Below, in pieces: positions 9,420 through 30,212 of a stretch of DNA of 64,000 nucleotides. Below the pieces are notes generated by a model, which was not told the DNA's origin, did no database searches, and saw only the letters and a list, made by a program, of their open reading frames with translations. The position numbers and the translations under genes are program-made. Source of the DNA: Candidatus Zhuqueibacterota bacterium (GTDB lineage Bacteria; Zhuqueibacterota; Zhuqueibacteria; Residuimicrobiales; Krinioviventaceae); assembly GCA_034521575.1 (NCBI GenBank), contig JAXHMJ010000001.1:263282-327281 (forward strand), in the 5' to 3' direction. Each line of letters begins with the position of its first letter. Positions within the stretch are counted from its first letter, which is position 1.

Positions 9420-9432
9420 AAATAAAAACTGG

Positions 9433-9563: not shown

Positions 9564-9599
9564 GCCATTTTAAAGAAATACCCCACAAATGAATAAACT

Positions 9600-11594: not shown

Positions 11595-11633
11595 GTCATG
11601 CTGGGAGACCGCAAACAGTAACTTTTTCAAATT

Positions 11634-12449: not shown

Positions 12450-12556
12450 GGCGTAAAGTACTAAATTTGAACGATATAACAATTAATAAACGGCTTGGTA
12501 ACTTGACAGGTAGGGGCTTTGAAATGCCCTGCGTTTCTTATTGCCAACCGTTATGC
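12426..12556 (+). repeat. attC site 3
   Basis: ACGCACAAC is the reverse complement of GTTGTGCGT (11588); R' GTTATGC at 12550. Confidence 0.8.
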
Positions 12557-12627
12557 CCAATATTAACAGGACACTACAAAGGAACAATTCAAAATGATTA
12601 AAATAATTTTTAAACAAAACTAAATAA

Positions 12628-13467: not shown

Positions 13468-13483
13468 AATAGATAAATACTGG

Positions 13484-13621
13484 GCATAACATAACAGCAA
13501 AATATAATTAATTGCGGTTTCAGTGCTGATAATCAACATTATCACCCGCACAAACCTCGGTGCATCTCGACAGGAAAGTGCCCCGCATTCCGCAACTAAT
13601 CATATTTGCGGAACGTTGTGC
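13484..13621 (+). repeat. attC site 4
   Basis: GGGCATAAC is the reverse complement of GTTATGCCC (12550); arms GCAAAATATAATTAATTGCGG / CCGCAACTAATCATATTTGC; R' GTTGTGC at 13615. Confidence 0.85.
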
Positions 13622-13668
13622 CGCATGCAAAAAAACACCCTGCTAAACGATAAACTAAATTGATAATT

Positions 13669-13992
13669 ATGGACTTTTCAAGTATTACAAACGGAATTTG
13701 ACAAGGAATAAAAACCTGGGAATCAAAACTGACGGAATTACCTAAAGATACGATTATGAATAAACGAAATAGTCAGAACCGGACAATAAAGCAGATACTT
13801 GGTCATATGGTTGATTCTGTTTCAAATAATACACATCGGATTATTCATTTACAATATCAAGCCAGTCCATTTAAATTTCCAAACTACGCTACCAATGGCA
13901 ATAATGACAGGTGGATTGCAATACAGAATTACCAAAACGAGAATTGGGAAAACCTGATTCAATATTGGAAATTATACAATGATAATTGGTGA
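13669..13992 (+). pseudogene. cassette 5: DinB-family gene with premature stop and 3' truncation
   Basis: MDFSSITNGI*QGIKTWESKL...TIKQILGHMVDSVSNNTHRIIHLQY; TGA at codon 11. Confidence 0.6.
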
Positions 13993-14161
13993 GATACTTG
14001 AAACTCATATCGATAACGATAAATTCATTGACGATAAAAAAGTTGACATTAAAATGCTTAACCCTTTGATTTATTGTTCAACTATAAGAGAATATTGGTC
14101 AATTGGAGAAAAACTTGGCGATGGATTTAAATGCGGTAAAGAATTAAAAACACATAATTAA
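13979..14161 (+). pseudogene. cassette 5: flavin reductase-like protein, C-terminal fragment
   Basis: IIGEILETHID...VDIKMLNPLIY...YWSIGEKLGDGFKCGK resembles the C-terminus of flavin reductase domain proteins. Confidence 0.55.
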
Positions 14162-14176
14162 AAAAAATGCACGACG

Positions 14177-14306
14177 GCACAACACATGGTATAGTGCATG
14201 CGGGTTTCAGAGGGTATTCCAGCGTTGTAGCCTGCTCAAGCCTTCGTATCGGTGGACAGGCAAGTAGCCCGCAATCCCTTACGGCACATACACTCAACCG
14301 TTGTGT
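14177..14306 (+). repeat. attC site 5
   Basis: CGGCACAAC is the reverse complement of GTTGTGCCG (13615); R' GTTGTGT at 14300. Confidence 0.8.
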
Positions 14307-14330
14307 GAAATAGCGTGCCGATAACTAATA

Positions 14331-16057
14331 CCTAAATTGATCGATTTATAAGGGCACCAAATAAAAACGGCGCAAAATGTTGCCGGTGCCGTCTTTTTCT
14401 ATTTGTTTTCATCTGAAATAACTTCTTATTACGCAATCAACCTTGCTTTTTGAACTGATTTTGCATTAAAGTCAGAGAATTATCAGTGTAACGGCATACT
14501 TCTCCCATTGTTTAGCTCTTTAATACGATTAATTTTTATTATGTTTTACGTCACAAATGCGGGTTCATACTCCTCAATGAATGACCATAATTTTAAAATC
14601 TTCAGGGAATCATAGACTGTCTGTGTTACCCTTAGTATAATTTTTCCGCCTGTTGTCACAATTTTGGCTGCAAAATCAATCATGATCCGACGAAAGGTAT
14701 TGGGGTAAGCGGTAACTGGTACTGCTTCACAGGGGATGTCCCTTTTATATGCTTCAAAAAGAAAATGGCTGATGATCATCAAATAGTAAAAAACTCTATT
14801 CATACCGAAACGCTTAAATGGTAACTGTTCTCTTCCAGCAAATTCTTTCTGTGATCGGTGTACTAATTCAGCTCTACCTCGACTGTGGTTTAACTCGATA
14901 ATCTTTTCGGCCTTGAGATAATTGCCACTACCAGCATTGATTAGTTTTTCATCCAAGCTCACTGTTTCGGCCTATATTGGTATAGATTACTGAATCCGGT
15001 TGTGCAAAATCAAATAAGAGTTGACCATTTTCCTCAGCTTTCTAAGAGGTAAAAATACAACGGCGAAATGTCTTCCATGATTTGAGGCGATTAGCAAATT
15101 CGACAAAAGTCCATGTCTGTCTATAAGAACGAAAAGCATCATAACTAAGATTGTTAACATATTGTTTAATATCGTTATATATTTTCCCGGCACAAACATA
15201 ATGAATACCAAGGCGTTGTTCAAAGAACCGAAAGTTCTGGTCATCCATAAAACCACTGTCTGTTAGCAGAATGATTGGAACATCTTTATAGCGACGTCGA
15301 ATAGCTTTGACCAGACGCCCCACTGACTTTATAAAGTCGCTGCCATGATTACAATGAACATCTCCGGCTCGGAACAGCGCATCAACAACATAAGGCCCCC
15401 AACTAATTTGCATAGGCTGGAATCCTTTTTTATTTTTATAGGTCACATTTGAGCCTTCACGCTTTTTAGCGCCGTCATTGTCGAAAACTACGCTGTCACC
15501 AAAAAGAATAACTTCTTTGGGTTGTTCAATAATAAGTCGCCAAATAAACATCTCCAACAAAAGAGACCGAAATATCATTTGCCCAACAAAACTGAACTTG
15601 CGAAACATCCTTTTGATTTGATGGGATGTTGCCATTTGTTCCGGGCGATTTTCGAGCACGGCAGCATAGGCTTCATCGTTTTTTCGACGATCAAAAGAAC
15701 AGATTGACATATCCGTACCATCAATAAACCAAGCAAAAAGCTGTTTGACAAACTGACGGTATCCCAGTCCTTTAGAAGAGCCTTTTAAAAAGCTAAAAAC
15801 GTTTTCAAATAGAGAATAGAATCGAATTTGGTCAATATATCTAAGAAAAAACAACAGACCACCACGACCGCTAATTTTATCTTTTGTGATCTCAATTTTT
15901 GATATTTTAGGTTGCGTTGTATCGGTTTTTTTCTGCATATTATGGCTACCTTTTGGGTTTTGTTGTTATTCTTTTTATTGGTTACACAACTAAAATAATA
16001 ACAAACTATTATAAACCCAAAAGGTTTTTTATTTTTTTAAAAACCGCTCAATTTAGG
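14331..16057 (-). mobile_element. IS1380-family insertion sequence, 1727 bp
   Basis: Terminal IRs CCTAAATTGATCGATTT / reverse complement CCTAAATTGAGCGGTTT; 5-bp direct repeat TAATA on both flanks (14326-14330, 16058-16062). Confidence 0.85.
14546..15938 (-). pseudogene. IS1380-type DDE transposase, interrupted
   Basis: KISGRGGL, DSVVFDND, YKNKKGFQP, FRAGDVH, TDSGF, RGRAELVH and KRFGMN motifs; in-frame TAG at 15042 and a +1 shift near 14955. Confidence 0.8.
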
Positions 16058-16205
16058 TAATAGAAAACCGTGCATCCGTGAACGGTTAAAGTCAAAGGAA
16101 TAGAAATGAAGATAAGAAAAACTTGCTACTGTTGGTGGAGAGGCGACTGATTAATCATTTTTAATCAATCTTTACTTTATCACTACAAATATTAGGAAAA
16201 CAACA

Positions 16206-16610
16206 ATGAACAAGATAGACGAAATACTGAAATCAATGACATTTGATTTTTTTGGTAGCGGAAAACATAAAATTACTCCATCAATGCATCTTTCTTCAAA
16301 AAATTCTTTATTTCTGGATGTAAGATCTAAAGAAGAATTAGAGACAATTGCATTTAGCCTTGTGCATCATATGCCGGTTTTACATATTCCCATTAATGAA
16401 ATACCGGATCGCTTATCAGAAATACCTCGCGACAAAACTGTTGGTATTTTTTGTTCTTCCGGTGTTCGTTCAACAATGATTTATTTTTATTTGCGAACAT
16501 TCGGCTTTGAAAATGTAAGAATATTTGAAGGGGGTTACGCTGAACTAGTAGATGATTTTAAACCCGGTAAATTGCTGAAACATATTACACAAGGTAAGAG
16601 CAAAGAATGA
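16206..16610 (+). CDS. cassette 6 gene A: rhodanese-like sulfurtransferase
   Basis: LDVRSKEE, LHIPINEIPDRL, IFCSSGVRS active-site loop, FEGGY. Confidence 0.85.
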   Translation: MNKIDEILKSMTFDFFGSGKHKITPSMHLSSKNSLFLDVRSKEELETIAFSLVHHMPVLHIPINEIPDRLSEIPRDKTVGIFCSSGVRSTMIYFYLRTFGFENVRIFEGGYAELVDDFKPGKLLKHITQGKSKE

Positions 16611-17398
16611 CAAAGATAATAATAATTAGTTTGTCGGTTTTTGCCATTGGCCTTATTATGACCATGTCTGGAAGAGGCGGAGGCAATTTCTACGTCCCAC
16701 TGCTTGTTATTGCAGGACTGGGAATGCATCAAGCCGCTACTATGGGTCAATTTATTCTTATGATTGCAGCATTAACGGGGATGCTTGTCTTTAACAAGAA
16801 AAAAATGGTCGATTGGAAACTTGCTTTGGTTATTGATCCGCCGACTGATATAATGGCATTTGTCGGAGGCTACTTTTCCAGCTATATAAGCGGGGTAACT
16901 CTTAAAATAGTTTTGTCAGCATTCCTGGTTTTGGCAGGCTTTTCTATGCTTGTTAAAATTAAAGAAAGACCTATTCAAACGGATAAACGGTTTGGTTATT
17001 GGCATAGAAACTTCAATGGTGAAAAGTATGTTGTAAATCTTTGGTATACAATACCTATTACAGCATTCGCCGGTTTGGTGGCTGGGGCTGTCGGAATATC
17101 ATGCGGTTCATTCAAGATTCCTCTAATGGTTTTATTGTGTGGGGTCCCTATGCATATCGCAGTCGGGACATCATCAGCCATGATTGCTGCTACTGCAATC
17201 ATGGGGTTTATAGGTCATACTATGCGTGGACACTTTGAGCCGGAATATGCTATTCCTTTGGCTATTGCTGCTATATTGGCTGGTATTCTCGGTGGCAAAT
17301 TGGCAATTAAAACAAACCCAAAGTATTTAAAGCTGATTTTTGCTGTAACAACATTTATCGCAGCAGTCGTCATGTCAATTAATGCCCTGGCAATATAA
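16607..17398 (+). CDS. cassette 6 gene B: sulfite exporter TauE/SafE (TSUP) family
   Basis: GRGGGNFYVPLL and GISCGSFKIPLMV...AVGTSSAM; overlaps gene A by ATGA. Confidence 0.85.
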   Translation: MTKIIIISLSVFAIGLIMTMSGRGGGNFYVPLLVIAGLGMHQAATMGQFILMIAALTGMLVFNKKKMVDWKLALVIDPPTDIMAFVGGYFSSYISGVTLKIVLSAFLVLAGFSMLVKIKERPIQTDKRFGYWHRNFNGEKYVVNLWYTIPITAFAGLVAGAVGISCGSFKIPLMVLLCGVPMHIAVGTSSAMIAATAIMGFIGHTMRGHFEPEYAIPLAIAAILAGILGGKLAIKTNPKYLKLIFAVTTFIAAVVMSINALAI

Positions 17399-17470
17399 AG
17401 AGATTTTTTACCAGTGTGAATACGTCCTGTCTTCACACTGGGTATTTCGTTGGAAGAGGCACGCCACTTC

Positions 17471-17568
17471 ACATAACAGCGGCTATGCGGTTCGGGCGGA
17501 GTACCGCCCTCTCCCAAATTGTCCTGCGCTGCGCTTCGGGCAACTTTGCATAGCAGTAAACGTTGTGC
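17471..17568 (+). repeat. attC site 6 (shorter, different sequence family)
   Basis: TTCACATAAC matches the reverse complement of GTTGTGTGAA at 9/10; arms GCTATGC / GCATAGC; R' GTTGTGC at 17562. Confidence 0.8.
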
Positions 17569-17667
17569 CATGTTTGGAATAACTCAAGACCAAAAATGAA
17601 TTGGAAACAATATGAGTGCGCCAAGCGAAGCTAATATAAGCAAGCCGGACAATCCGGAACGTGCAAA

Positions 17668-17758
17668 GGCTAACCACCAGCACGGAACCATGCGTATGAG
17701 GCGGCAACAAATCATACGAAGCCATGTTGAAGGCAGTTTGTCAGCCATAACGTTAGCC
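17668..17758 (+). repeat. tentative attC site 7
   Basis: GGCTAAC...GTTAGCC with an inner CGTATGA/TCATACG stem; outer L arms pair poorly. Confidence 0.35.
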
Positions 17759-17759
17759 T

Positions 17760-18642
17760 GTGCGTGCCAGCACCCAGACAGGCAAGTTCACCCTGTTAGA
17801 TTTATATTTGATAAGGTGAATCCTGTTGGAATACTGTTATCTAACAGGGTGAAGGTATCGAGTCCCGAAATATTCCATATTGCTTTGGGTTAAAGGTTTC
17901 ATTTCCTGGAAGCCAATATCAAGACAAACGTTAGAGGTGAGTTTGAGTTTGACGAGCCGGGCAAGCGAATGAACGGTTTTTGTGATTTGATCCGTTACGC
18001 GGATGATTTTGTGTGCGTGGTACGGTATGCAAAAGAAGCGCACCGTATAGAACGGGGCTTACAAAACCGATTCACCCAGTATGGACTGGAGATTCATTTG
18101 ACGAAGAGCCGGAACATAAGTTTTGGACGGTTTGAACGGGAGAACGCCAGGAGCCAGAAACGCCGCGCCAATACATTTGATTTTCTGGGATTTACTCACT
18201 ACTGTGACTGGTCGAGGCGAGGCTATTTTAAGGTAGGCCGCAAAACCAGTCGCAAGAAATATACAGCCAAATGCAAGGAGATGAATGCGTGGCTTAAATC
18301 TATCAGGAATTAGATAGCAACGAAAGACTGGTGGAAGATACTGAGAGCCAAATTACGAGGACATTTTCAGTATTATGGAGTGAGTGAGAACTACAGAGGG
18401 ATAGCCAGGTTTTACAGATTTACCCTGAATATGGTGAAGAAATGGTTAAACCGACATAGTCAGAAACGGAAAATGAACTGGAAGAGATTCAAAGAATATC
18501 TTGATCATTATCCGTAGCCCGAACCGAAAATCATGCACAGCTTTTATGGGTCACGTGTAAGGTGAGATAAACTGAGGAGCCGGATGTGGAAAATTCACAA
18601 GTCCGGTTCTGTGAGGGGCATTGAAGTTCCTCACAATAAAGT
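17760..18642 (+). mobile_element. group II intron remnant (internal deletion, truncated in domain VI)
   Basis: GTGCG at 17760; domain I-like stem TTCACCCTGTTAGAT/ATCTAACAGGGTGAA; RT remnant; domain V GAGCCGGATGTGGAAAATTCACAAGTCCGGTTC at 18577-18609; no branch-point 3' end. Confidence 0.75.
17969..18565 (+). pseudogene. group II intron reverse transcriptase/maturase, C-terminal third
   Basis: LIRYADDFV, TFDFLGFTHYC, KLRGHFQYYG, WLNRHSQKR; in-frame TAG stops at 18311 and 18515; RT N-terminus absent. Confidence 0.85.
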
Positions 18643-18998
18643 TAAAACGCGGGGTAGCGTGTGGGATTGTACAGAAGCAGGAATCAACTATATCGGGTGC
18701 GGGAGGTACGATAACTTTTGCGGTATATAATGGTGGAAATTTTTGGCCGCCTGATTCCATTTCATCATTTTCCATACCTTTACCTGAACAAGGCACAGAT
18801 CTGCGATATATCCGGTCATTCGGATGAAATGGTTTAAAAATGATGGAGATTTTACCTTTTTTTTAAGCAGTTGATAACACTCGGTACCCAAAAGATGAAT
18901 TCTCTGAATAAATTTACTTTTGCTAATTGGAAATATAAACAATTTTCCTTATATTTCCAATACAGCGGTATAAAAACAACAGAATATATACAGACGTT
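18643..18998 (+). pseudogene. array head copy 2: decayed tyrosine recombinase 3' end plus attI-like site
   Basis: About 21 differences from 8194-8552 by hand alignment; same EQGTDLRYI; ends TATATACAGAC-GTT at the next cassette. Confidence 0.6.
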
Positions 18999-19018
18999 GG
19001 CAATAATTTAAAGAGAAC

Positions 19019-20233
19019 ATGAAGGTAAAAGGATACATAAAAAAAGATTATACTGAAATAGCCGACTCGTTTAGAAAAAACTTTGAAATATTTGGAGAGT
19101 TAGGTGCATCACTTTGCATATATCACAACAATGAAAAGGTGATAGATATTTGGGGTGGATATAAAGATCTGAAAAAAGGCAACGAATGGGATGAAAATAC
19201 TGTTGTACCTATATTTTCAACCACAAAAGCTATAGCCTCAACTTGTTTAGCTATTTGCCACAGCAGAGGATTATTTGACTATAACAGTAAAGTCTGTGAA
19301 CATTGGCCTGAGTTTGGGATGGAAAACAAGAAAGAAATAACTGTTGAGCAATTACTTCAACACAGAGCTGGACTTTCGGCCATAGATGAAAAATTAAATT
19401 CCGAGAAAATAAAAAACCGGAAGTTTTTAGACAAAGTAATAGCTAAACAAAAGCCATTTTGGTACCCTGGACATTATCAAGGATATCATGTTTGGAACAT
19501 AGGATGGTATATTAGCTCATTACTTTCAAGAATTGAACCCCGGAAAAGATTTCTTAAAGAATTTATTGAACAGGAAATACTTCCAAATATTGAAGGTGAA
19601 GTCCGAATTGGTGTTGAAAATAACTATAATTGGTCAAAAATTGCCACATTAAGACCTTTCTCAAAGCTAAAAGGACTATTTTCTATGCCTTTTAAGTTTG
19701 TTTTTGAATTCTTTAAGCCTTGGTCACTTTCTTTCAAATCAATGTTAAATCCTCCGTTTGTTAGTAATCATTCCAACTTTAATAAACCTGAGATACTTCA
19801 ACTTGAGATGGGGGCTGGTGGAGGCATTGGGAATGCAAGAGGATTAGCCTCTCTAATTGATTCATTAACGGATGGGAATCATTCTTTACACTTAAAAAAA
19901 GAGACACTGGAATATTTGATGAAATATCCTGAAGCCCCAATAAAAGGATGGGAAGATATTGTTTTTAAACAGGATGCATTTAGATTCCACGCTGGATTTA
20001 TGAAACCATCTAAAAAGCATGATTTTGCAAAAACTATAAAAGCTTTTGGTGGATTTGGTGCGGGAGGAAGTTTTGTATTTCATGATCCTGAGTATAAACT
20101 TACAGTTGCATATACAATGAATAAAATGTCTTCTAAAATGATGAACATGAATAGAGAATTAAATATCAGAAATTCGGTATATAAAACTATTGCCAACAAA
20201 GCATCAAACCCAATAGCCGCGGGTGTTTCATAG
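19019..20233 (+). CDS. cassette 8: serine hydrolase, beta-lactamase/family VIII esterase fold
   Basis: IFSTTK (SxxK), LLQHRAGL, GYH, FGGFGAGGSF; no signal peptide. Confidence 0.85.
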   Translation: MKVKGYIKKDYTEIADSFRKNFEIFGELGASLCIYHNNEKVIDIWGGYKDLKKGNEWDENTVVPIFSTTKAIASTCLAICHSRGLFDYNSKVCEHWPEFGMENKKEITVEQLLQHRAGLSAIDEKLNSEKIKNRKFLDKVIAKQKPFWYPGHYQGYHVWNIGWYISSLLSRIEPRKRFLKEFIEQEILPNIEGEVRIGVENNYNWSKIATLRPFSKLKGLFSMPFKFVFEFFKPWSLSFKSMLNPPFVSNHSNFNKPEILQLEMGAGGGIGNARGLASLIDSLTDGNHSLHLKKETLEYLMKYPEAPIKGWEDIVFKQDAFRFHAGFMKPSKKHDFAKTIKAFGGFGAGGSFVFHDPEYKLTVAYTMNKMSSKMMNMNRELNIRNSVYKTIANKASNPIAAGVS

Positions 20234-20318
20234 GATAGTGATGAAGTTAAATGAAAATTTCGTACTTTTATGAAACGACAGTGGAAGCGGCTACAGGGTT
20301 TATGCTCGAACGTTGGCT
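20191..20318 (+). repeat. attC site 8
   Basis: TATTGCCAAC is the reverse complement of GTTGGCAATA (18996); arms AGCATCAAACCC / GGGTTTATGCT with an extrahelical C; R' GTTGGCT. Confidence 0.85.
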
Positions 20319-20379
20319 GCTATTATAAAAGACTTTGCAAGTAAATTAAATTCGAAAAAATAAACGAAATACAGAACAA

Positions 20380-20628
20380 ATGAACCAGAATGAACTATCT
20401 CAATTATCCAATAAGGAATTGCTCGAAGTAGTAAAGAACAGCAAACCCTCACCTATAATAGACGCATTTTTTATTGGGTTTTTGGTTGGAATAATAATTT
20501 ACAGCGTAGCTGCTAACTCGTGGGGTTTTCTCACCTTAATTCCATTGTATTTAATTTATATTTTCTTGAAAAAACCAAAGAAATACGAAGCATTGAAAAA
20601 TGAATTAAAAAAACGAAACTTGGAATAG
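20380..20628 (+). CDS. cassette 9 gene A: small two-TM hypothetical protein
   Basis: 82 aa with two hydrophobic segments; plausible start after the cassette leader. Confidence 0.6.
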   Translation: MNQNELSQLSNKELLEVVKNSKPSPIIDAFFIGFLVGIIIYSVAANSWGFLTLIPLYLIYIFLKKPKKYEALKNELKKRNLE

Positions 20629-20631
20629 ATG

Positions 20632-21342
20632 ATGTCGGGAATCTGTCAAAAATGCAAATCAGAGGTAACTCAAAAATACTGTTAACTTTGAGGTCATCCA
20701 AAAGCAATGACAAGAATTGATGCAAATTATTTGCTTCAAGAACTTTGTTCTGTCTTGAGTTTTGAAAAAGGTTTTTTATTTACCGTTCGCGAACTATCCA
20801 CTAACCCAGGGAAAAGCATAAAAGACTTTTTAAATGAAGATAGAAATAGATTGGTAAAACCAGTATTGTTTTTAATAGTAACGTCTTATTTATACTATAT
20901 TCAATAATATTTTTCACTTTGAGGATGGTTACGTACAATTGTCAGGCAACAAAGACTCAGCGACTCTTTCAATATCCAAATGGATACAAGGAAATTATGG
21001 CTATGCAAATATTATCATGGCTATCTTTATTGCAGGATGGGTCAAACTTTTTTTCAGAACGCAAAGTCAACATATTTGAAATTCTAGTACTTTTTTGTTT
21101 CGTTATGGGTATGGGAATGCTTATTTATGCGGCTTTTGGTGTCGTTCAAAGTCTGATAGATTTTAATCTAATACAGGTTGCAGTGATTGTTGGGTTCATA
21201 TATATGACTTGGACAATTTTATGGAAAAGGAAAGATTATCAATTATGTTAAAGCGTTTTCTGCTTACATATTGGGCATGATAACTTTTTCAATAACGGCA
21301 ATATTAATCGGTACAGTAATTGATTTACTTGCTAGACAATGA
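20632..21342 (+). pseudogene. cassette 9 gene B: DUF3667-like membrane protein, fragmented
   Basis: CQKC---TQKYC Zn-knuckle start and EKGFLFTVREL-TNPGKSIKDFL-EDRNRLVKP; multiple stops and frameshifts. Confidence 0.55.
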
Positions 21343-21352
21343 AAATAACAGC

Positions 21353-21484
21353 AGCCAACAGCGTATATAACTCATGGCGGGGAAAGTGGTTAATTCAAGC
21401 TTTGAGCATTTAAGGAAGTTTATTTCAAGCCGACAAGAAAGTGCTTTAAAAACCGCCACAAGTCATATACGCAAACCGTTGTAT
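21353..21484 (+). repeat. attC site 9
   Basis: AGCAGCCAAC is the reverse complement of GTTGGCTGCT (20312); arms GCGTATATAACTCATGGCGG / CCGCCACAAGTCATATACGC; R' GTTGTAT at 21478. Confidence 0.88.
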
Positions 21485-21570
21485 GCAAGTGTGCCCCATT
21501 TTTGTAGCCAAGGACTATGCATATTGCGAAAGGAATGCCGATTATGAGAGCAAAGAAGGAGAAGCAAGTT

Positions 21571-24375
21571 ATGAACCACATTTTCAGAGCATTAGTTTTT
21601 TTCTCTATCATCAGTATTTTATTTATTGAAAGTTGTAACAACGCAACACCAGGCAATTGGCAATGGGAAACTATCACAACGGTAGGAAAACCAACAGCAC
21701 GCCATGAGGCAGGTCTTGTAGCTTACAATGACAAATTATATTTAATGGGTGGGAGAAGAATTAATCCTACTTCGGTATTTGATCCTGCCACAAATACATG
21801 GACAGAGAAATCGGCTACGCCTATTGAGTTACATCACTTTCAACCAGTAGTTTTTAACGATGCAATTTATTTGATTGGTGCCATGACCGGAGGATGGCCA
21901 AACGAAACGCCTGTTGATAGGGTTGTTATTTATTATCCCGAACGTGATGAATATGTATATGGTGACACTATTCCTGAGCATCGAAGAAGAGGTGGAGCTG
22001 GCGCAGTGGTTTATAATAATAAAGTCTATTTAATTGGTGGTATTACAAATGGCCATATGAATGGTTATAAACCTTGGTTTGATGAATATAATCCCGAAAC
22101 TGGCGAATGGAAAACATTGGCTGATGCGCCGAATGCACGTGATCATTTTCAAGCTGTAGTTGTCGACAATAAGCTTTATGCATTTGCCGGCCGAACCACT
22201 TCAAAAATAACAGATCAAGATATGGCTTTAACTGTTAGTCACGGTAATGTATACAACTTCAAAACTCAAAAATGGGAAGCAGTAACCAATAATTTAGCCA
22301 TTCCAACCATGAGAGCCGGAAATTTTGCTTTTGGCTGGAACAATTCAATTATAATTGGCGGGGGCGAAACCGCCGAACAAGAGGATGCCCATAATGAAGT
22401 AGAAGCCTATAACGCCAAAACAAAACTATGGAGTAAATGGCCTTCTCTAAATCAAGGCAGGCATGGTACCGGGTTTGCCGTTATTGGAAACTATGTATAC
22501 ACTGCATCAGGCTGTGGAAGACATGGTGGTGAACCTGAACTAACAACGGTTGAAAGATTGGAATTACCCAAAGGAGATGTAGCGCCCCTATCTAAAATAT
22601 TAGATACCACAAAAGTATTTATGCAATGGCATACCATCACACTTTCTTTCAAAGGTCCCGAAACATCTGAAGCGGCTCAAGAAAATCCATTTTTAAACTA
22701 TCGATTAAGTGTTGAATTTAAAAACAAAGATACTAAGCAAAGCATTCGTGGTTTTTATGCAGCTGATGGAGATGCAGCCGAAACCAGTGCTAAAAAAGGA
22801 AACATTTGGCAAGTGAGATTTACTCCTGACAAAACAGGGAAATGGTCATACTCGGCAAAACTAAGCAAAGGGGATCGTATTGCCCTAAACGATGATCTAA
22901 ATATGGGAGAAACAGTTTCTGTCTCGAATGCTAAAGGCAACTTTATAGTTATTAAATCAGATAAAGACGGTGATGATTTTCGGGCTCACGGCCGAATAGA
23001 AGCCTCTCATGAATATTTTAAATTTAGGGGCACCGATAATTATTGGCTTAAAGCCGGAACAAATAGTCCGGAAAACCTATTGGCTTACATTGATATTGAT
23101 GGTACATATCGCACCAAAGCTGAGGCCAGAGAAGGAGAAGCTGCTGCGCCAGAAAATATACATGCTTACGAGCCCCATTTAAATGATTGGAAAACGGGTG
23201 ATCCTACCTGGAAAAACGGAAAAGGAAAATCATTGATCGGGGCTATCAATTATTTAGCGTCAAAAGGAATGAACTCAGCCTACTTTTTGACTTTAAATAT
23301 TTTAGGCGATGGAAAAGATGCATGGCCTTATGTGAGTCCTGATGATTTTACCCGATTTGATGTGAGCAAATTAGATCAATGGGAAATTATATTTGAATAT
23401 ATGCAATCAAAAGGCATTTTATTGCATGTGGTGTTACAGGAAACAGAAAATGAAACCATGCTCGATAATGGAGATACCGGACCTTTTCGCCAATTATACC
23501 TTCGGGAACTTGTTGCAAGGTTTGGACATCATTTGGGGTTGGTGTGGAATCTGGGTGAAGAGAATGGGCCGGTACCCTGGGCGAAAGATATGCCATCTCA
23601 GAATGATAAACAACGAAAGACAATGGCAAAATTTATTAAAGAACACGACCCGTATAATCATCCGGTCGTATTACATACCTTACCGAGTGAGGGTATACGA
23701 AAGGACATTTTAACAAATTTGCTTGGTTTTGAGTATCTGGATGGTATTTCTCTCCAACATGCAGAACGGGAAACAGCACCAGAGATAGTCTCTAACTGGA
23801 GGTTAAAATCTGATAGTGCTGGTCACCCCTGGCTGATTACTATGGATGAAATTGGGATGTGGTACGATGGTGCCATGACGGATGCTGAAGATCCTAATCA
23901 TTCTACACTTAGACGGTACGCCCTTTGGGGCACCTTGTTATCGGGAGGAGCTGGTGTTGAATGGTATTTTGGAGCAAAGCATCCACATAATGATTTAACT
24001 TCGGAAGATTGGCGACAAAGAAACCGTCTTTGGGAAATTACAAACTATGCTAAAGAATTTTTTGATACATACCTGCCCTATTGGGAAATGCAACCCGAAC
24101 ATGGTTTGGTTAACTCAAAAGAAGCGTATTGCTTGCGCAAGAAGGATGAGATTTATGCTATTTATTTGCCAAATTCTAAATCCTATACGCTCGATTTAAG
24201 CATTTCCAAAAACAGCTTTAGCGTACACTGGTTTAACCCATTAACCGGAAGTGAATTGCAAATCGGCTCAATAAAATCAATAAATGGCGGCGGAATTCGT
24301 TCATTGGGAAATCCACCAGAATTTGAGAATAATTTACCTGATCAGGATTGGGTGGTATTGATAAAACGGTTATAA
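21571..24375 (+). CDS. cassette 10 gene A: lipoprotein, Kelch beta-propeller + DUF5060-like + putative glycoside hydrolase TIM barrel
   Basis: Lipobox FIES-C; repeated LYLMGG/IYLIGA/VYLIGG/LYAFAG Kelch blades; GFYAADG, WQVRFTPDKTGKWSY, RFDVSKLDQW, VWNLGEEN; C-terminal FSVHWFNP. RBS GAAGGAG precedes ATG 21571. Confidence 0.75.
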   Translation: MNHIFRALVFFSIISILFIESCNNATPGNWQWETITTVGKPTARHEAGLVAYNDKLYLMGGRRINPTSVFDPATNTWTEKSATPIELHHFQPVVFNDAIYLIGAMTGGWPNETPVDRVVIYYPERDEYVYGDTIPEHRRRGGAGAVVYNNKVYLIGGITNGHMNGYKPWFDEYNPETGEWKTLADAPNARDHFQAVVVDNKLYAFAGRTTSKITDQDMALTVSHGNVYNFKTQKWEAVTNNLAIPTMRAGNFAFGWNNSIIIGGGETAEQEDAHNEVEAYNAKTKLWSKWPSLNQGRHGTGFAVIGNYVYTASGCGRHGGEPELTTVERLELPKGDVAPLSKILDTTKVFMQWHTITLSFKGPETSEAAQENPFLNYRLSVEFKNKDTKQSIRGFYAADGDAAETSAKKGNIWQVRFTPDKTGKWSYSAKLSKGDRIALNDDLNMGETVSVSNAKGNFIVIKSDKDGDDFRAHGRIEASHEYFKFRGTDNYWLKAGTNSPENLLAYIDIDGTYRTKAEAREGEAAAPENIHAYEPHLNDWKTGDPTWKNGKGKSLIGAINYLASKGMNSAYFLTLNILGDGKDAWPYVSPDDFTRFDVSKLDQWEIIFEYMQSKGILLHVVLQETENETMLDNGDTGPFRQLYLRELVARFGHHLGLVWNLGEENGPVPWAKDMPSQNDKQRKTMAKFIKEHDPYNHPVVLHTLPSEGIRKDILTNLLGFEYLDGISLQHAERETAPEIVSNWRLKSDSAGHPWLITMDEIGMWYDGAMTDAEDPNHSTLRRYALWGTLLSGGAGVEWYFGAKHPHNDLTSEDWRQRNRLWEITNYAKEFFDTYLPYWEMQPEHGLVNSKEAYCLRKKDEIYAIYLPNSKSYTLDLSISKNSFSVHWFNPLTGSELQIGSIKSINGGGIRSLGNPPEFENNLPDQDWVVLIKRL

Positions 24376-24410
24376 TTGATAGTAAAAAAAATCGAAATAA
24401 GGAACGAAAA

Positions 24411-26573
24411 ATGAAAAATTATAAAAACATATTATCATTTCAAATCAAACACATTCTATTAAGTATCTGCGTTATTGCACTATTCTCTTGTCAGCAATCA
24501 ACAAAAAATACGGCGGTTCCTGCCGTTCAAAAAATTGATCCAACCGTAGATACTTCAATTTGGTGGGAAAAAAATAACCTTCGACTGATACAAACAAACT
24601 TGCCTGCACCCGAAGGAGCTTTGAATCCTGATTCTTTGGTTAAGGATTTAATCAAGTTTTCGGCAAATACCTTGCTTATAAATGCAGGCGGGATAATGGC
24701 TTTTTATCCTACAAAACTTTTTTTTCATTATAAAAACCCGCATGTTAAAGGCGATATGCTGGGCCGGGTAATTTCTTTATGTCATGAAAATGGAATAAGA
24801 GTTATTGTTCGTTTTGACTTTAGTCGTGCACATAAGAGTTTTTTAAAAGACCATCCCGATTGGTTCTATATATCACCTAAAGGTGAAAGAGTCGATAATT
24901 ACGACATGTTGGTAACCTCTGTGAATGGTGAATACATGCAAAAACATGCATTTGCAATTATTCAGGAAGTACTTGATAATTATCCGATTGATGGTATTTT
25001 TATTAATATGTTTGGTTACAAAACATGGGATTATTATCATGGGGTATATCATGGTATTGATCAAAACCCGAACGATAAAAGACGGTTTAAAGAGTATTCC
25101 GGTGGAATGGAACTACCAACAGTTGAAGATCCGAATGATCCCGTATTTCAAAAGTATGATGAATTCAGAAAGCATACAACCAACGAATTACTAAAAAGGG
25201 TACATGATTTATTAAAGTCGAAAAGACCCAATATTGCTTTATGCACTTATAATGACGATTATGTTGACATAATGCGACATGAAGCCCAGGGTGAACTTCA
25301 CCATCTGCCTTATTTCGCGTACATAGCCTCTGAAAATGTTAATACAGTTGAATCAACCTTTGATGATAAAATATCAAGCAGTTCAAGTATACAACAAATA
25401 ACATTTGGTTCAAGATATCATGCTGTACCGCCCGTAAGAATTCGAAATCGATTATATCAGAATTTGGCTCATGGTTCTGGACTTGATATTAGTTTGATGG
25501 GTGACCTTCGTGATTACGAAGATGAAAGAGGTTTTGATGTAATTAAAAAGGTTTATTCTTATGCCGCCAGGAACGAAAAGTATTACGGTGACTATAAAAG
25601 TATGGCAGAAATTGCCATTATAAAAGAGGCTTACTGGCCAGGCGGGCCTGTTATGGAAGAAATGCGTGGAATTGAGCAAAACCTCAAAGAGGAACATATT
25701 CAATTCGATCTTATTCTTAAAAAACACTTTGCTGTTAGCTACAAAAAACTTAAAAACTATAAAATAATTATACTTGGACATCTCAGGAATTTCAATAAAA
25801 AGGAAATAGAGGCGCTTACCAGGCTCACGAATGATGGTGTAAATGTTATTGCTACTAATCAGGCATTGATGGATACACCTGGCGCATTAAAAGAATTATT
25901 TGGTACAAAAGTTAAGGAATCTTCTTTTGATGCATTTAAATATTATCTGCAATTAAAAGATCAGGCTGTTATTAAAAGGCAGGATAAATTGCATCAGTGT
26001 TTTCTTAAATGTAATTTTATGAAATGTAAATTCTCGGATGAAAGTGAACTTTACCTGCCTTTGCTTGATAAAGGAAGAGAAGGTCCGCCCGAAAGAATTG
26101 GAGGACATGTGCCCACCGGGTGGTTTGGTATTAGTATTTATCAGAAGAACAAATCAAAAATGGTTTATATACCATGGGAAATTGGAAGAATGTATCACAC
26201 CTATGGTTTTTTTGCACATAAAGATATCTTGTTGGATGTGATAGACTATATTAATCCTGAAATCACACAGGATTTTAATACCAATGCTCCTCCACAAGTT
26301 GAAATAACATTTAATAAATTCAGGTATAATTCCGATACAACAGATTCTTATAATAAATACATCATTAATTTGATCAACTTGTCGGGGTTCAATGGCCGCA
26401 GCTATTTTGAGCCTTTAGAAATAGATAATATCAACTTTGAATTTAAAGTGGATATAAAACCTGAAAAAGTATATGGTTTAAAGTCGGACAACACAATAAA
26501 ATTTGAGGGTGACACAATCATTAAATTTACATTAGATCATCTTCAGGATTTTGACGCAATAGTAATTGAATAA
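24411..26573 (+). CDS. cassette 10 gene B: lipoprotein, GHL6-like putative glycoside hydrolase with beta-galactosidase trimerisation-like domain
   Basis: Lipobox LFS-C; LRLIQTNL, NAGGIMAFYPT, GIRVIVRFDFS, HPDWF, YPIDGIFIN. Confidence 0.65.
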   Translation: MKNYKNILSFQIKHILLSICVIALFSCQQSTKNTAVPAVQKIDPTVDTSIWWEKNNLRLIQTNLPAPEGALNPDSLVKDLIKFSANTLLINAGGIMAFYPTKLFFHYKNPHVKGDMLGRVISLCHENGIRVIVRFDFSRAHKSFLKDHPDWFYISPKGERVDNYDMLVTSVNGEYMQKHAFAIIQEVLDNYPIDGIFINMFGYKTWDYYHGVYHGIDQNPNDKRRFKEYSGGMELPTVEDPNDPVFQKYDEFRKHTTNELLKRVHDLLKSKRPNIALCTYNDDYVDIMRHEAQGELHHLPYFAYIASENVNTVESTFDDKISSSSSIQQITFGSRYHAVPPVRIRNRLYQNLAHGSGLDISLMGDLRDYEDERGFDVIKKVYSYAARNEKYYGDYKSMAEIAIIKEAYWPGGPVMEEMRGIEQNLKEEHIQFDLILKKHFAVSYKKLKNYKIIILGHLRNFNKKEIEALTRLTNDGVNVIATNQALMDTPGALKELFGTKVKESSFDAFKYYLQLKDQAVIKRQDKLHQCFLKCNFMKCKFSDESELYLPLLDKGREGPPERIGGHVPTGWFGISIYQKNKSKMVYIPWEIGRMYHTYGFFAHKDILLDVIDYINPEITQDFNTNAPPQVEITFNKFRYNSDTTDSYNKYIINLINLSGFNGRSYFEPLEIDNINFEFKVDIKPEKVYGLKSDNTIKFEGDTIIKFTLDHLQDFDAIVIE

Positions 26574-28762
26574 TGGATGAGGACATGCAAAATATATTAA
26601 AGTTATTGTGCGCATTCATATTGTTAATATTCTTTTCATGTGGTAATAGTAAAACAATTCACGTCAGTTTTAACCAGGGTTCTTCTGTGTTAAAGTACGG
26701 AGTATCGAAACTTGAAGAACATGCTCAAGAGTCAGGATTTGTGGTTCGACAAAATGAACTCGACAAGGCAAACCAGGGAATAATTATCATCACTAAAAAT
26801 GATTCGCTTAACCCGAAACTGGAAGGTTACCGCTCAGAAAATAAAGATGACGGATATAACATTATTTTAAACGAGGGCCAAATTTATATTATTGGAAACT
26901 CTGAAAGAGGATGTTTATATGGGTTATTCGACTTGATAGAACAAACAGGAACTGATTGTGATATTTCTAAAGTTGAGGCCAAACAAATAAATCCTGCTAA
27001 TGCGTTTAGGGCGGTAAAAATAAATCTTCCGTGGTCACCATACCGACCGGGTCCAACAAACGATGTGCACTTGGAAACCTGCAAGGACTTGAAATTTTGG
27101 GAAGCATTTTTAGATATGTGTGTGAAAAACAGGTTTAATGCGGTGAGTCTCTGGAATAACCACCCTTTTCCATACATGATTCGGGCAAAGAATTATCCCA
27201 AAGCCACTCCATTTAATGACGAGGAGCTTGCGAAATGGCAAGATTTTTACAAAACGCTTTTTAAAATGGCAAAAGAAAGGGGGCTCGAAACATATCTTGT
27301 TAATTGGAATATTGTGGTATCGCCCGAATTTGCCGAAAATTATGGAGCAAAAGAATATTTCGATCGTTCAGAATTGGTGAAAAAATACACCAGAGAATCG
27401 GTAACTCAATTGATAAATGAATATAAAGATCTGACAGGATTTGGAACGACACTGGCAGACTGGATGGGAAATTGGGGCGATGAAAAAATGACGCCGGAGG
27501 AACGGGAAGAATGGATCAAAGAAACCATTGTTGAAGGAATAAAAAATGCAGACAGAAAAGTAAAGTTCATTCACAGAGCTGTTTTATCAGGTGATCCGAA
27601 ATTAATGAGAGAAGTGATTGATTATGCGGATTTACCGGAAAAAACCATCGTTGAGATTAAGTTTAACTGGTCGCACGGGCACTCAACGCCCAATCTTTCT
27701 TTAACCCATTCCAATGACGATGGTACCATTATGAGTGGATTTTGGGATCCAAATCCCGGGAATTTTTTTATAGCCTGGATGGTACGGAATGAAGATTTTT
27801 TTGTACTTTGTTGGGGGGATCCTGAATTTATCAGAGACCATATCAATACTAATAAACACGATTATGTTCAAGGATATTTCATCGGTTCTGAGGGCTACAT
27901 TCCTGCAAAAGATTATTCTTATATTGAACCTCATCCTCAAAAAACATGGAAATATGCTTTTGAAAAACAGTGGTTGTTTTATCACCTTTGGGGACGATTA
28001 CTTTTTGACCCAAATGAAAAAGATAGTACCCTTGCCAATGAGATTGAAAAAAGATATCCAGCTATTGATGCTCTAGCTTTCTTAAAAACATATTCACTGG
28101 CATCAAAGGTTCCTTTGAATATTGCCACATTTTATAAAGGCACATGGGATTTAACATTATACAGCGAGGGCTTTTTAGCACCCTGGCAACCTGATATCGA
28201 AGATGGAAGATCACCATTTATTTCTCTCCAGGAGTTTATTGATCATGAAACATTGGATAAACGGTACATGAATATTGGGGATTACGTTACAAAAGTTCAT
28301 GAAAATATTCCACTAGACAAGGAAATGATAACCCCCATTGAGCTTGCAGAAAGAACCAAAAGCAACTGCGATAAATCATTAGGGATCATCGACAGTCTTG
28401 AAAAACAGAGTAATGATCCTACATTCCATTCCGAAATTGAGGATCTTAAAACCTGGTGCTATCTTGGATATTATTTTGCAGAAAAGATTTATGCAGGAGT
28501 TGCCTTAAAAACTTACATGTTGTCAAAGGATATAAGAGATAAAGAAACCTCCCTTCAACATGCGGAGAAAGCATTACAGCATTGGAATAGAATTGTGGAA
28601 CTAACAAAAACCAGATATCAAATAATGCCTTATGTAATGATGACACATCCTGAGAACAGGTGGCCTGATTTTAAAGGTTTTCATTGGAAAGATTACCTGA
28701 AAGAGGTTGAGTATGATATTGAATATATAGAGAGTATTGAGTATGATATATTAATTCAGTGA
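26573..28762 (+). CDS. cassette 10 gene C: lipoprotein, putative glycoside hydrolase (GH20/GH67-like N-terminal domain + TIM barrel)
   Basis: Lipobox FFS-C; DDGYNI...IYIIGNSERGCLYGLFDL, FRAVKINLPW, RFNAVSLW; TAATG overlap with gene B. Confidence 0.55.
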   Translation: MDEDMQNILKLLCAFILLIFFSCGNSKTIHVSFNQGSSVLKYGVSKLEEHAQESGFVVRQNELDKANQGIIIITKNDSLNPKLEGYRSENKDDGYNIILNEGQIYIIGNSERGCLYGLFDLIEQTGTDCDISKVEAKQINPANAFRAVKINLPWSPYRPGPTNDVHLETCKDLKFWEAFLDMCVKNRFNAVSLWNNHPFPYMIRAKNYPKATPFNDEELAKWQDFYKTLFKMAKERGLETYLVNWNIVVSPEFAENYGAKEYFDRSELVKKYTRESVTQLINEYKDLTGFGTTLADWMGNWGDEKMTPEEREEWIKETIVEGIKNADRKVKFIHRAVLSGDPKLMREVIDYADLPEKTIVEIKFNWSHGHSTPNLSLTHSNDDGTIMSGFWDPNPGNFFIAWMVRNEDFFVLCWGDPEFIRDHINTNKHDYVQGYFIGSEGYIPAKDYSYIEPHPQKTWKYAFEKQWLFYHLWGRLLFDPNEKDSTLANEIEKRYPAIDALAFLKTYSLASKVPLNIATFYKGTWDLTLYSEGFLAPWQPDIEDGRSPFISLQEFIDHETLDKRYMNIGDYVTKVHENIPLDKEMITPIELAERTKSNCDKSLGIIDSLEKQSNDPTFHSEIEDLKTWCYLGYYFAEKIYAGVALKTYMLSKDIRDKETSLQHAEKALQHWNRIVELTKTRYQIMPYVMMTHPENRWPDFKGFHWKDYLKEVEYDIEYIESIEYDILIQ

Positions 28763-28784
28763 GGCTCCATAAATAAACACCAGC

Positions 28785-28914
28785 ATACAACATGCGGTAT
28801 AAAACATTGGGATTTAAGTGGTTATTTAAAATTCCTGCTACACATCAAGTTTGGAGTAACTGGCCAGGAGATTAGGCTGCAATCTCCAACGATTTCATAC
28901 CGTCACCGTTGTGC
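28785..28914 (+). repeat. attC site 10
   Basis: GCATACAAC is the reverse complement of GTTGTATGC (21478); arms CGGTATAAAAC / TTTCATACCG; R' GTTGTGC at 28908. Confidence 0.88.
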
Positions 28915-28961
28915 CGCATGCAAAAACCGTAGTGCAACTAAATTTGGATTTTGAACAAGTG

Positions 28962-29246
28962 ATGAATAAAAGCAAGAAAAAGATTTATAGAGATAAAAAC
29001 GGATGTGAATTTATAAAGGAGACCTACTTTGTCGGTGGAAGAATGAAATTCCGTAGAATTTATGTAATTGATGGCATTCCAGCAGATGAATTTTACGAGA
29101 AAAATGCGACTGATTTGGATTTCTATTTGAATGGAGACTATGAGTTAATGAATAGCGAAAAAGATTCTAATAATCATTGCAATGAGCAAAACAAGAAAGA
29201 ATCCGATTTGCCTGATAATGAAGATGAGAAAGATTTACCATTTTAA
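28962..29246 (+). CDS. cassette 11 gene A: small acidic hypothetical protein ending DLPF
   Basis: ORF after the cassette leader; C-terminus DNEDEKDLPF. Confidence 0.55.
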   Translation: MNKSKKKIYRDKNGCEFIKETYFVGGRMKFRRIYVIDGIPADEFYEKNATDLDFYLNGDYELMNSEKDSNNHCNEQNKKESDLPDNEDEKDLPF

Positions 29247-29272
29247 AATTAAAAATAATACTAAAAAGCTTA

Positions 29273-30127
29273 ATGATTATGATTTCAAGTTGTAATAGTC
29301 TTAAAAAATTATATCTCTCAGAAATTGGTGAGACAATAAATGATACTCCTATTAAAAAAGGGGGAATCTATACTGAGAATGATTTCTTTACTTTACCTGC
29401 GCAAATTCAAAATTATTTCAAAAATTGTGGATACATAGGTAAAGAAAAAATAGAAAACATCAAGATAGATTACAGCAATTCATTTATTAAAATGTCTCCA
29501 GAAAAGAAATGGCTAAAGATAAAGTATTATCAAGTCAATTTTACTCATAATCCAACTCGATTAGCATATATTTCAAGTAAAATAATTGGGATATTCTCGT
29601 TTGAGGGGAGAGATAAATACCAAGCTGGTAAAGGCAATATGTTGATAAGACTGTTAAAATTGTTTACCGTTGCTGATGCAAAAGGGAAGGAAATGGATAA
29701 ATCAGCACTGGCAACACTATTGAGTGAAGTTTTATTTATGCCAAGCTTTGCGACAAGAGAACAAATAAAGTGGAAAAGCATTGATGAAAATTCAGTTGAA
29801 GCAAAATATAGGGATAATGATAATGTGGTTTCTGGAATTTTTTATTTCAACGGTAATCATGAGTTTATAAGATTTACGACTGACGATAGATTTTATTCAC
29901 TAAAAGATGGGAGTTATAAAAAAACAAAATGGTCAGTAGAATTAAGCAATTATAAAGATTTTAAAGGAATAAAATTTCCTGAAAATGTAAAAGCCATATG
30001 GCATATGGATGACAAAGATTACGAATACTTTAGAACACAAATAAAAGATGTTCAATATAATATAAATAAGCAAAGCACCAACGCACAACATCTTTATAAT
30101 AAATTCAAATTCACCCCTTACCCATAA
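29273..30127 (+). CDS. cassette 11 gene B: DUF6544-like hypothetical protein
   Basis: LPAQIQNYF--CGYIGK, GRDKYQAGKGNM-I-LL-LF-VADAKG-EMD motifs. Confidence 0.65.
   Translation: MIMISSCNSLKKLYLSEIGETINDTPIKKGGIYTENDFFTLPAQIQNYFKNCGYIGKEKIENIKIDYSNSFIKMSPEKKWLKIKYYQVNFTHNPTRLAYISSKIIGIFSFEGRDKYQAGKGNMLIRLLKLFTVADAKGKEMDKSALATLLSEVLFMPSFATREQIKWKSIDENSVEAKYRDNDNVVSGIFYFNGNHEFIRFTTDDRFYSLKDGSYKKTKWSVELSNYKDFKGIKFPENVKAIWHMDDKDYEYFRTQIKDVQYNINKQSTNAQHLYNKFKFTPYP
30083..30105 (+). repeat. half attC (left arm only) at array end
   Basis: AAAGCACCAACGCACAAC mirrors the attC3 left end (AAAGCACGAACGCACAAC); no right arm or GTT follows before GC-rich backbone resumes. Confidence 0.55.
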
Positions 30128-30212
30128 CAATTCTCCATTCCCCATCTCTGTTTTACCTTGCTTTTATGCGGCAAAATATTATTTTATGAGTGTTTTCAGG
30201 AAAGGATGAATC

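Follow-up and report, generated by a model that had tools for sequence, protein, structure and literature searches.

The subject of this study is a 7.4-kb interval between two attC sites, carrying three consecutive lipoprotein genes (here designated g1, g2, and g3), in DNA from a salt-pan metagenome. The interval lies in a 64,000-nucleotide stretch of contig JAXHMJ010000001.1 (positions 263,282 to 327,281; assembly GCA_034521575.1, Candidatus Zhuqueibacterota bacterium), which is referred to as the window and in whose coordinates positions are given. Composition across the window set apart an island at ∼8.0 to 30.1 kb, with a GC content of 30 to 41%, from flanking DNA with 45 to 55% GC; the GC content of the three-gene block is 33 to 41%. 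The flanks carry ordinary chromosomal genes (GH97, GH2, sulfatase, glutaminyl-tRNA synthetase [GlnRS], YchF, arginyl-tRNA synthetase [ArgRS], and sensor kinases).

The array within the island consisted of gene units in one orientation, and behind each unit lay an imperfect palindrome (∼130 bp) framed by AAC...GTT. Seven of the palindromes aligned as one family with the conserved center GACAGGAAAGTGC, and the consensus fold of this family had compensatory changes in 12 of its 20 stem pairs. A strict scan of the window for RYYYAAC...GTTRRRY found no site because the R boxes deviate from these motifs (e.g., ATACAAC). A covariance model made from the seven palindromes was adopted after a loose scan for AAC...GTT combined with folding had been swamped by noise. 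The model detected nine attC sites in the window, all on the plus strand, two of which were outside the training set (12418 to 12562, 74 bits; 20183 to 20324, 30 bits); everything else scored 22.6 bits or less. The preliminary description of this DNA had counted ten sites, and its names for the two that bound the 7.4-kb interval, attC9 and attC10, are retained here (Table 1). Nine co-oriented attC sites with no intI beside them in the window make the locus strictly a cluster of attC sites lacking an integron-integrase (CALIN) and not a complete integron. The distance between attC9 and attC10 is beyond the usual 4-kb clustering rule (PMC4889954).

Table 1. Positions of the attC array, the three-gene cassette, and their parts in the window
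Feature	Position	Strand	Description
Low-GC attC array holding the cassette	8553..30130	+	Composition, covariance-model matches, stem covariation
attC site starts	9425, 11455, 12418, 13476, 14169, 17463, 20183, 21345, 28777	+	Covariance model
attC9	21350..21484 (model match 21345-21490)	+	R'' AGCAGCCAAC 21350-21359; R' GTTGTAT 21478-21484
Cassette	21479..28908 (7,430 bp)	+	Starts at the TT in the G|TT of attC9 and ends at the G in that of attC10
Leader	21479..21570	+	Extended R' box TTGTATGCAAGTGT, then a 75-nt stretch ending AAGGAG (21555-21560), 10 nt before the ATG
g1	21571..24375 (934 amino acids)	+	Lipoprotein; Kelch beta-propeller, DUF5060, GH5-like (beta/alpha)8 barrel, Collagen_bind_2 beta-sandwich
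g2	24411..26573 (720 amino acids)	+	Lipoprotein; GHL6/GHL10 "hypothetical glycoside hydrolase" kind
Second exact GCATACAAC	25172..25180	+	Inside g2; chance copy
g3	26573..28762 (729 amino acids)	+	Lipoprotein; distant relative of GH138 (alpha-galacturonidase family)
attC10 (the cassette's own attC)	28783..28914 (model match 28777-28920)	+	R'' GCATACAAC 28783-28791; R' GTTGTGC 28908-28914

The boundaries of the interval follow from the crossover positions. attC9 terminates ...CCG|TTGTATGC at 21478/21479, so that the cassette begins G|TTGTATGC; the R' core of attC9 has its G at 21478 and its TT at 21479 to 21480, and the G of the attC10 core is at 28908. These positions reproduce exactly the coordinates proposed previously. 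In order to avoid circularity, a leave-out covariance model was rebuilt from five sites, with attC9 and attC10 excluded. This model still recognized both attC9 (83.8 bits; E value, 2.5e-20) and attC10 (68.4 bits; E value, 3.4e-16). When the same model was used to seek an internal attC in 21491 to 28776, the best scores were 12.7 bits (E value, 0.35) and 8.5 bits (E value, 4.6), which match the background level of host DNA. Thus, there is no degenerate internal attC of the array's family, as the preliminary description had maintained. Folding of the two bottom strands, previously suggested as a check, gave the expected shape for both sites: attC9 as single-stranded DNA formed the R-box pair and a 20-bp stem (z = -3.1), and the R boxes and L arms of attC10 were paired, with bulges, in the minimum-energy and centroid folds.

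In its circular form, a cassette has one site made of two halves: the R'' box and the bases that come first after G|TT. At the two ends of the 7.4-kb interval, GTTGTATGC (21478 to 21486) and GCATACAAC (28783 to 28791) are exact reverse complements at nine of nine positions, in agreement with the earlier claim; with GTT/AAC fixed, the chance that the six remaining bases match is ∼1 in 4,096 at a fixed register. The rule was obeyed by seven more cassettes, those in which it could be checked (starts at 8553, 9557, 11589, 12551, 13621, 19000, and 20313), and a previous remark to this effect about the small cassettes was correct. The pairs of start and R'' box were GTTATGCCC and GGGCATAAC (in two cassettes), GTTAGTAGCC and GGCTACTAAC, GTTGTGCGT and ACGCACAAC, GTTGTGCC and GGCACAAC, GTTGGCAATA and TATTGCCAAC, and, in the cassette preceding the three-gene unit, GTTGGCTGCT (at 20313) and AGCAGCCAAC, which is the R'' box of attC9. 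The pair of the three-gene unit had also been described as unique in the array, which did not hold, as a second exact GCATACAAC is present within the coding sequence of g2. This second copy is attributed to chance because it is absent from the homologous position in five related loci (L003, L004, L007, L063, and L028) and because no attC signal was found at it with the covariance model.

Genes carried by the cassette

The start of g1 is the ATG behind AAGGAG. The gaps between the genes are 35 bp (g1-g2) and a 1-nt TAATG overlap (g2-g3); these gaps and the lengths of the three proteins are as initially described. All three proteins have a hydrophobic signal followed by a cysteine (...FIESC, ...LFSC, and ...FFSC), which agrees with the lipoboxes that had been noted. 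In Bacteroidota, export of lipoproteins to the surface depends on an acidic signal after the cysteine. The residues following the lipid cysteine are NNAT, QQST, and GNSK, none of which is acidic, and this argues against surface display of the three lipoproteins; the preliminary description's term "surface-anchored" is not supported.

The fold labels previously given to the proteins were partly retained. Pfam domains in g1 were Kelch, DUF5060, and Collagen_bind_2, and g2 matched GHL6 (E value, 5e-28) and GHL10 (E value, 7e-12), so that the Kelch/DUF5060 and GHL6-like labels stand. A sequence search of the C-terminal 584 residues of g1 against solved structures gave no match; matches were obtained by fold search alone. 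The predicted structure of g1 (mean predicted local distance difference test score [pLDDT], 79.7) matched ManDH5, a GH5 mannanase, and BVU_0362, a putative hydrolase, over DUF5060, the barrel, and the sandwich (E value, ∼1e-23; target template modeling [TM] score, 0.68 to 0.70). Glu663/Glu664, after a predicted strand (657 to 661), and Glu760, in a strand at 755 to 761, were invariant in 26 homologues. On one reading of the model, these would be barrel strands 4 and 7, where clan GH-A barrels carry conserved glutamates (after strand 4 and in strand 7), and Glu664 and Glu760 would correspond to the GH5 catalytic pair. No relative of g2 was found by sequence among solved structures.

The GH20/67-like label for g3, which arose from a shared N-terminal domain, is replaced by GH138-like on the basis of sequence, profile, and fold matches. 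g3 matched BPa0997 (PDB 6HZE/6HZF) with E values of 2.6e-30 for the protein and 2.8e-46 for the profile, and its predicted structure (pLDDT, 85.6) matched 6HZF/6HZG in Foldseek (E value, ∼3e-31; TM score, 0.73 to 0.78), the fold being shared along the full length. The profile alignment with GH138 covers residues 6 to 320 and 566 to 689, and the region of Glu361 of BPa0997 falls outside this confident coverage. On the curated NCBIfam alpha-galacturonidase model NF049878, g3 scored 151 bits, far under the cut-off of 1300, and it is not a curated member of GH138.

The three genes are intact, and the ratio of nonsynonymous to synonymous substitution rates (dN/dS) versus two relatives is ∼0.07 to 0.17; therefore, g1, g2, and g3 have been kept by purifying selection. 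Scans for promoters and terminators around both cassette ends found nothing above shuffled sequences. Pfam searches found three enzyme-like genes and no SusC/SusD pair in the cassette. A polysaccharide utilization locus (PUL) is recognized by an adjacent SusC-like/SusD-like pair, and because there is none inside, the content of the cassette is an enzyme set, not a PUL. We infer that the three lipoproteins act jointly on a complex glycan, probably one containing uronic acids.

Most of the other cassette genes have no ribosome-binding motif like AAGGAG, and many host genes in the window have purine-rich ones. No protein in the collection was more than 78% identical to the host GlnRS, whose nearest named relatives were from candidate division KSB1 (73%) and Calditrichaeota (71%). 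g1, g2, and g3 are each ∼85% identical to proteins of marine Bacteroidota; for g1, the identity was 80 to 87%, with sources that included Aestuariivivens sediminis, Algoriphagus lutimaris, and metagenome-assembled Cyclobacteriaceae. The host thus looks KSB1-like, of another phylum than the Bacteroidota from which the genes came.

Relatives of the three-gene block in other contigs

The order g1-g2-g3 was found only in a group with 80 to 90% identity, comprising Flavobacteriaceae, Sphingobacteriia, Bacteroidales, and the present host. More distant homologues of g3 (identity, 63% or less) occur without g1, and among them only contig L014 has a relative of g2 beside g3. Three relatives free of attC sites are ordinary Bacteroidota sugar loci: L066 has genes for GntR, a major facilitator superfamily (MFS) protein, isomerases, and DUF1080, followed by g1 and g2; L001 has DUF1080 and g1; and in L007, a further lipoprotein gene comes immediately after g1-g2-g3. 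Relatives of the block with 90 to 95% DNA identity were abundant in sediment runs.

A search for the block elsewhere with the same ends, put forward in the preliminary description as a check, was positive. The cassette start is shared, after unrelated attC sites, by four other metagenomic contigs. One of them, the Bacteroidales contig L004, has an attC (36 bits) ending ...GGCTGTATGCAAATG, the whole g1-g2-g3 block, and GCATACAAT 40 nt past the g3 stop, with the same GCATACAA box as in the window. Its neighbors differ from those in the window: Gabija-like genes and a PAS kinase upstream, and Y4jL_N and UPF0158 cassettes downstream. In L064, an attC (54 bits) ending CCGTTGTATGCAAGTGTG precedes g1 and then a g3 that has internal deletions. 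L063 has an attC (41 bits), a short remnant, and GTCGTATGCAAGT, followed by g1-g2. In L069, an attC (24.5 bits) ending GGTTGTATGCAAGTGT is followed by the 95-nt leader of the window and then by g1. Some attC sequences are common to the arrays: L064 shares one with the window site at 9425, and L004 shares sequences with the window sites at 12418 and 14169.

The L004 array abuts a GH26-GH130-SusC-SusD PUL, which lies outside the block; when the contig was extended in search of an integrase, this mannan PUL was met instead. The Gabija-like genes upstream in L004 are an OLD-nuclease/UvrD pair. A repeated element of ∼100 bp occurs in L004 at 9668 to 9770, just ahead of the attC on the upstream side of the block, and at 17362 to 17465, just after the block, both copies ending CCAGTTGTGGCA. 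In a sediment-metagenome contig from run X4, the end of g1 is joined to the last 400 bp of g3, with 3,985 bases skipped (window 24374 to 28360), a deletion variant resembling L064.

The leader varies among these copies. In L069, ∼95 further AT-rich bases lie between the shared leader and the ATG. The leaders of L064, L063, and L004 are AT-rich, have no AAGGAG-like motif, and diverge after ∼25 nt. A deletion, leaving AAGGAG 10 nt before the ATG in the window, may have adapted translation of g1 to a non-Bacteroidota host. Derivation of the leader from the 3' end of the DUF1080 gene, which precedes g1 in native loci, was considered and rejected, as the local alignment was no better than with shuffled sequences (P of ∼0.4).

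In a tree of g1, copies linked to attC sites and copies linked to DUF1080 were split by a single change (support, 92/97), which fits one capture event. The identity of the blocks is a mosaic, varying from 69 to 97% per 500 bp, and copies therefore also recombine with each other.

Probable movement of the block and alternative explanations

These results suggest that the 7,430-bp interval is very probably a single genuine integron cassette that has moved between arrays. The preliminary description had proposed that the whole module was packaged and mobilized as one attC cassette, and the bounding attC sites, the complementarity of the ends, and the recurrence of the unit behind other attC sites support that proposal; excision is judged from comparison of the arrays. 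Most likely, the operon was captured once and then spread as a cassette. A three-gene glycoside-hydrolase operon of marine Bacteroidota would have been made into a cassette once, and integron-integrase recombination at G|TT would then have carried this cassette from one attC array to another, the present copy having come to lie in the 22-kb chromosomal cassette array of what appears to be a KSB1-like salt-pan bacterium. For excision, IntI would bring attC9 and attC10 into synapsis as folded bottom strands and release a 7.4-kb circle. The expected circle junction is ...attC10 L' arm-G|TTGTATGCAAGTG..., and the expected empty site is attC9 joined directly to TTGTGCCGCATGC, an attC9/attC10 hybrid. 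The excised circle could presumably reinsert at an attI or attC site.

Several observations weigh against a cassette of this kind, or against its present mobility. There was no Phage_integrase match, and hence no tyrosine recombinase or IntI, among the open reading frames of at least 90 amino acids in the window; because of this, the present copy may need IntI from elsewhere or may be frozen. The fold energy of attC10 was ordinary, no better than that of shuffled sequence (z = -0.9), although its shape was as expected. In L004, the 5' site has a core mutated to GCT, and on the 3' side, where only the R'' box survives, the attC fold has been lost. Flanking cores are mutated (GCT, GTC, and TTT) in L004, L063, and A. 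sediminis, and several copies are thus fossils. The variants that have the same start and are shorter (g1 only in L069; g1-g2 in L063) indicate that the content of the unit changed over time. In addition, excision becomes rarer as cassettes lengthen and has been tested only to ∼3 kb (PMC5371416), and in a capture screen fewer reads were obtained for longer cassettes (bioRxiv 10.64898/2026.03.17.712381).

The same short variants, together with the mosaic identity that points to frequent recombination between copies, would be expected if a cassette with g1 alone had been captured and later enlarged by homologous recombination with a native g1-g2-g3 operon. However, in both the window and L004, the R'' box that complements the start sits after g3, not g1 (A. 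sediminis has a mutated copy of it), and the deleted pieces of g3 behind g1 in L064 show that this short form, at least, arose from the long one. Thus, a composite origin seems quite unlikely, and the three-gene form is bounded by cassette ends in two different arrays either way.

Very unlikely is an assembly chimera, in which, at repeated attC sequences, a KSB1-like contig was misjoined to low-GC Bacteroidota DNA. The DNA comes from an assembled metagenome, the block differs from the host in GC content as given above, and short-read contigs break at a 360-bp repeat at the left junction, which is covered to 8145 and from 8188, leaving 8146 to 8187 uncovered. However, independent Logan contigs from run X1 join attC9 to g1 (21449 to 25127, one mismatch) and g3 through attC10 to the next cassette (27958 to 29040, no mismatch), and a contig from run X2 spans the right junction between array and host (29996 to 30395). 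Depth was similar (∼4 to 7) over host, array, and cassette, and host DNA lies on both sides of the array within one 552-kb contig. Other contigs from the salt-pan runs X1 and X2 and from sediment runs share attC9 up to 21476 to 21483 and attC10 from 28787 to 28789 and then diverge, a pattern expected of shuffled cassettes, although it is seen in contigs and not in reads.

Loss of attC sites is a known route to multigene cassettes and could in general have fused three once-separate cassettes. This is extremely unlikely here, given gaps of 35 bp and -1 bp, the same gene order, likewise tightly spaced, in the attC-free loci L007 (g1-g2-g3) and L066 (g1-g2), and no attC remnant above background. 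Just as little weight can be given to the idea that the block is ordinary island DNA flanked by palindromes of some other intergenic repeat family, for which the missing integrase and the departure of the R boxes from the strict consensus would speak: there is one site per gene unit, in a single orientation, with AAC...GTT cores, R-box complementarity of 9 to 10 bp private to each unit, covarying stems, variable central parts, a group II intron remnant in the array, and the same unit behind different sites in other contigs.

For the integron cassette favored here, A. sediminis bears on how the unit arose. In two strains, the block retains the native upstream gene DUF1080, as in other Bacteroidota, and DNA homology to the window extends past the g3 stop, ∼30 nt into attC10. 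A weak attC (23 to 26 bits) with mutated R boxes lies 40 nt behind g3. The locus could be a snapshot of the birth of the cassette, in which the chromosomal operon first acquired an attC and was cut at its 5' end later, but this is considered unlikely. Alternatively, a native copy may have recombined with one from a cassette, or a cassette may have inserted at a place that is not an att site. Insertion of the latter sort, which leaves a single attC (bioRxiv 10.1101/2022.09.11.507474), could explain a decayed attC in an ordinary chromosomal context; however, the 5' side in A. sediminis is continuous with native DUF1080-g1, which does not suit simple insertion of a whole cassette. If the snapshot reading were true, A. 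sediminis would give a concrete intermediate for the unsolved origin of cassettes and their attC sites. The group II intron remnant in the array fits the old model of intron-mediated cassette genesis.

This remnant (17616 to 18640, on the cassette strand) has an Rfam match to domains D1-D4 (17649 to 17971, 62.9 bits), an open reading frame of 114 amino acids with only the C-terminal part of RVT_1, and a domain V-like hairpin near 18575; at ∼8100 to 8190 there is a short sequence resembling its 3' end. That look-alike comes before the first copy of a direct repeat of ∼360 bp (8190 to 8552 and 18643 to 18998), whose copies end ...TATATACAGAC-GTT where cassettes begin (GTTATGCCC at 8553 and GTTGGCAATA at 19000). 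The repeat looks like a duplicated attI-like array head. Its translation had no Pfam match to a recombinase at E values up to 10, and the reading of 8194 to 8552 as a decayed integrase tail is unsupported, with no Pfam match even at an E value of 10.

Other features belong to individual cassettes or to the array edges. An insertion sequence (14320 to 16000), whose minus-strand DDE_Tnp_1_4 transposase is split (14546 to 14962 and 15042 to 15938), interrupts the cassette starting at 14301, which has rhodanese and TauE genes; the R'' box of this cassette's attC (17463) is two mismatches from the expected complement. The cassette at 19019 to 20233 encodes a 404-amino-acid protein of the serine beta-lactamase/transpeptidase family (PF00144; E value, 3e-46), and its attC overlaps the gene end. 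The last unit (28908 to 30130) starts GTTGTGCCGCATGCAAAAA, 19 bases that also open the cassette at 13621, and has an open reading frame of 111 amino acids and a DUF6544 gene, with no attC before host DNA resumes at ∼30130. At the left edge (7204 to 7910), a truncated AcrB-type pump (C-terminal 130 residues) and fragments of an outer-membrane efflux protein are present, and the island may have taken the place of part of an efflux operon.

Comparison with known systems

Surveys of genomes and metagenomes assume that cassettes are small and mostly carry single genes, and attC sites more than 4 kb apart are left unlinked (PMC4889954; PMC7370490). This limit was set from the maximum size known for cassettes, ∼2 kb (Cury et al. 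2016, PMC4889954), and the same limit of 4,000 nt was used in the metagenome survey of Buongermino Pereira et al. (PMC7370490). The median length of cassette coding sequences is 362 to 575 bp (PMC5371416), and defense cassettes of Vibrio integrons have been described as streamlined to small size (bioRxiv 10.1101/2024.07.02.601686). No report of a cassette of the present size, or of glycoside-hydrolase operons as cassettes, was found in the literature, the coverage of which was incomplete, and no record is claimed.

The spacing limit of integron finders is exceeded by the unit described here, and default settings would split the array at the 7.4-kb cassette. A catabolic operon of three genes here has the ends of a proper cassette, and the unit, whole or in shortened form, recurs in five arrays that come from different samples. 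If units of this kind are common, the range of integron cargo is underestimated, integrons are a route for sets of carbohydrate-active enzymes among marine and hypersaline bacteria, and the size limit of integrase excision (tested to ∼3 kb; PMC5371416) needs to be measured again. Native and cassette-borne versions of one operon, available as a pair, are rare material on the origin of cassettes.

With the cassettes of sedentary chromosomal integrons and CALINs (PMC4889954), the present unit shares the 3' attC, the G|TT crossover, the co-oriented promoterless arrangement, a homogeneous attC family within the array, and a composition unlike that of the host; it differs in having three genes and 7.4 kb, compared to ∼2 kb for the largest known. 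Multigene Vibrio cassettes with toxin-antitoxin and antiphage genes (bioRxiv 10.1101/2024.07.02.601686) likewise have more than one cotranscribed gene per attC, whereas the present cassette has three full-length genes of 720 to 934 codons, with a catabolic function and not one in defense or addiction.

Among glycan degradation systems, g3 shares the full-length fold (TM score, 0.73 to 0.78) and a clear profile match (E value, 2.8e-46) with GH138 BT0997/BPa0997 of the rhamnogalacturonan-II degradome (6HZE, 6HZF, and 6HZG), but its identity to these proteins is 18 to 19%, its length is 729 versus 893 amino acids, and it lies far under the NCBIfam equivalog cut-off. PULs of Bacteroidota spread on conjugative elements. 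Like them, the cassette has cotranscribed lipoprotein glycoside hydrolases of Bacteroidota origin and horizontal transfer between distant taxa; unlike them, it has no SusC/SusD pair or regulator, and its vehicle is attC site-specific recombination, not a conjugative element. The mechanism is already known, and it is the scale and the cargo that are unusual.

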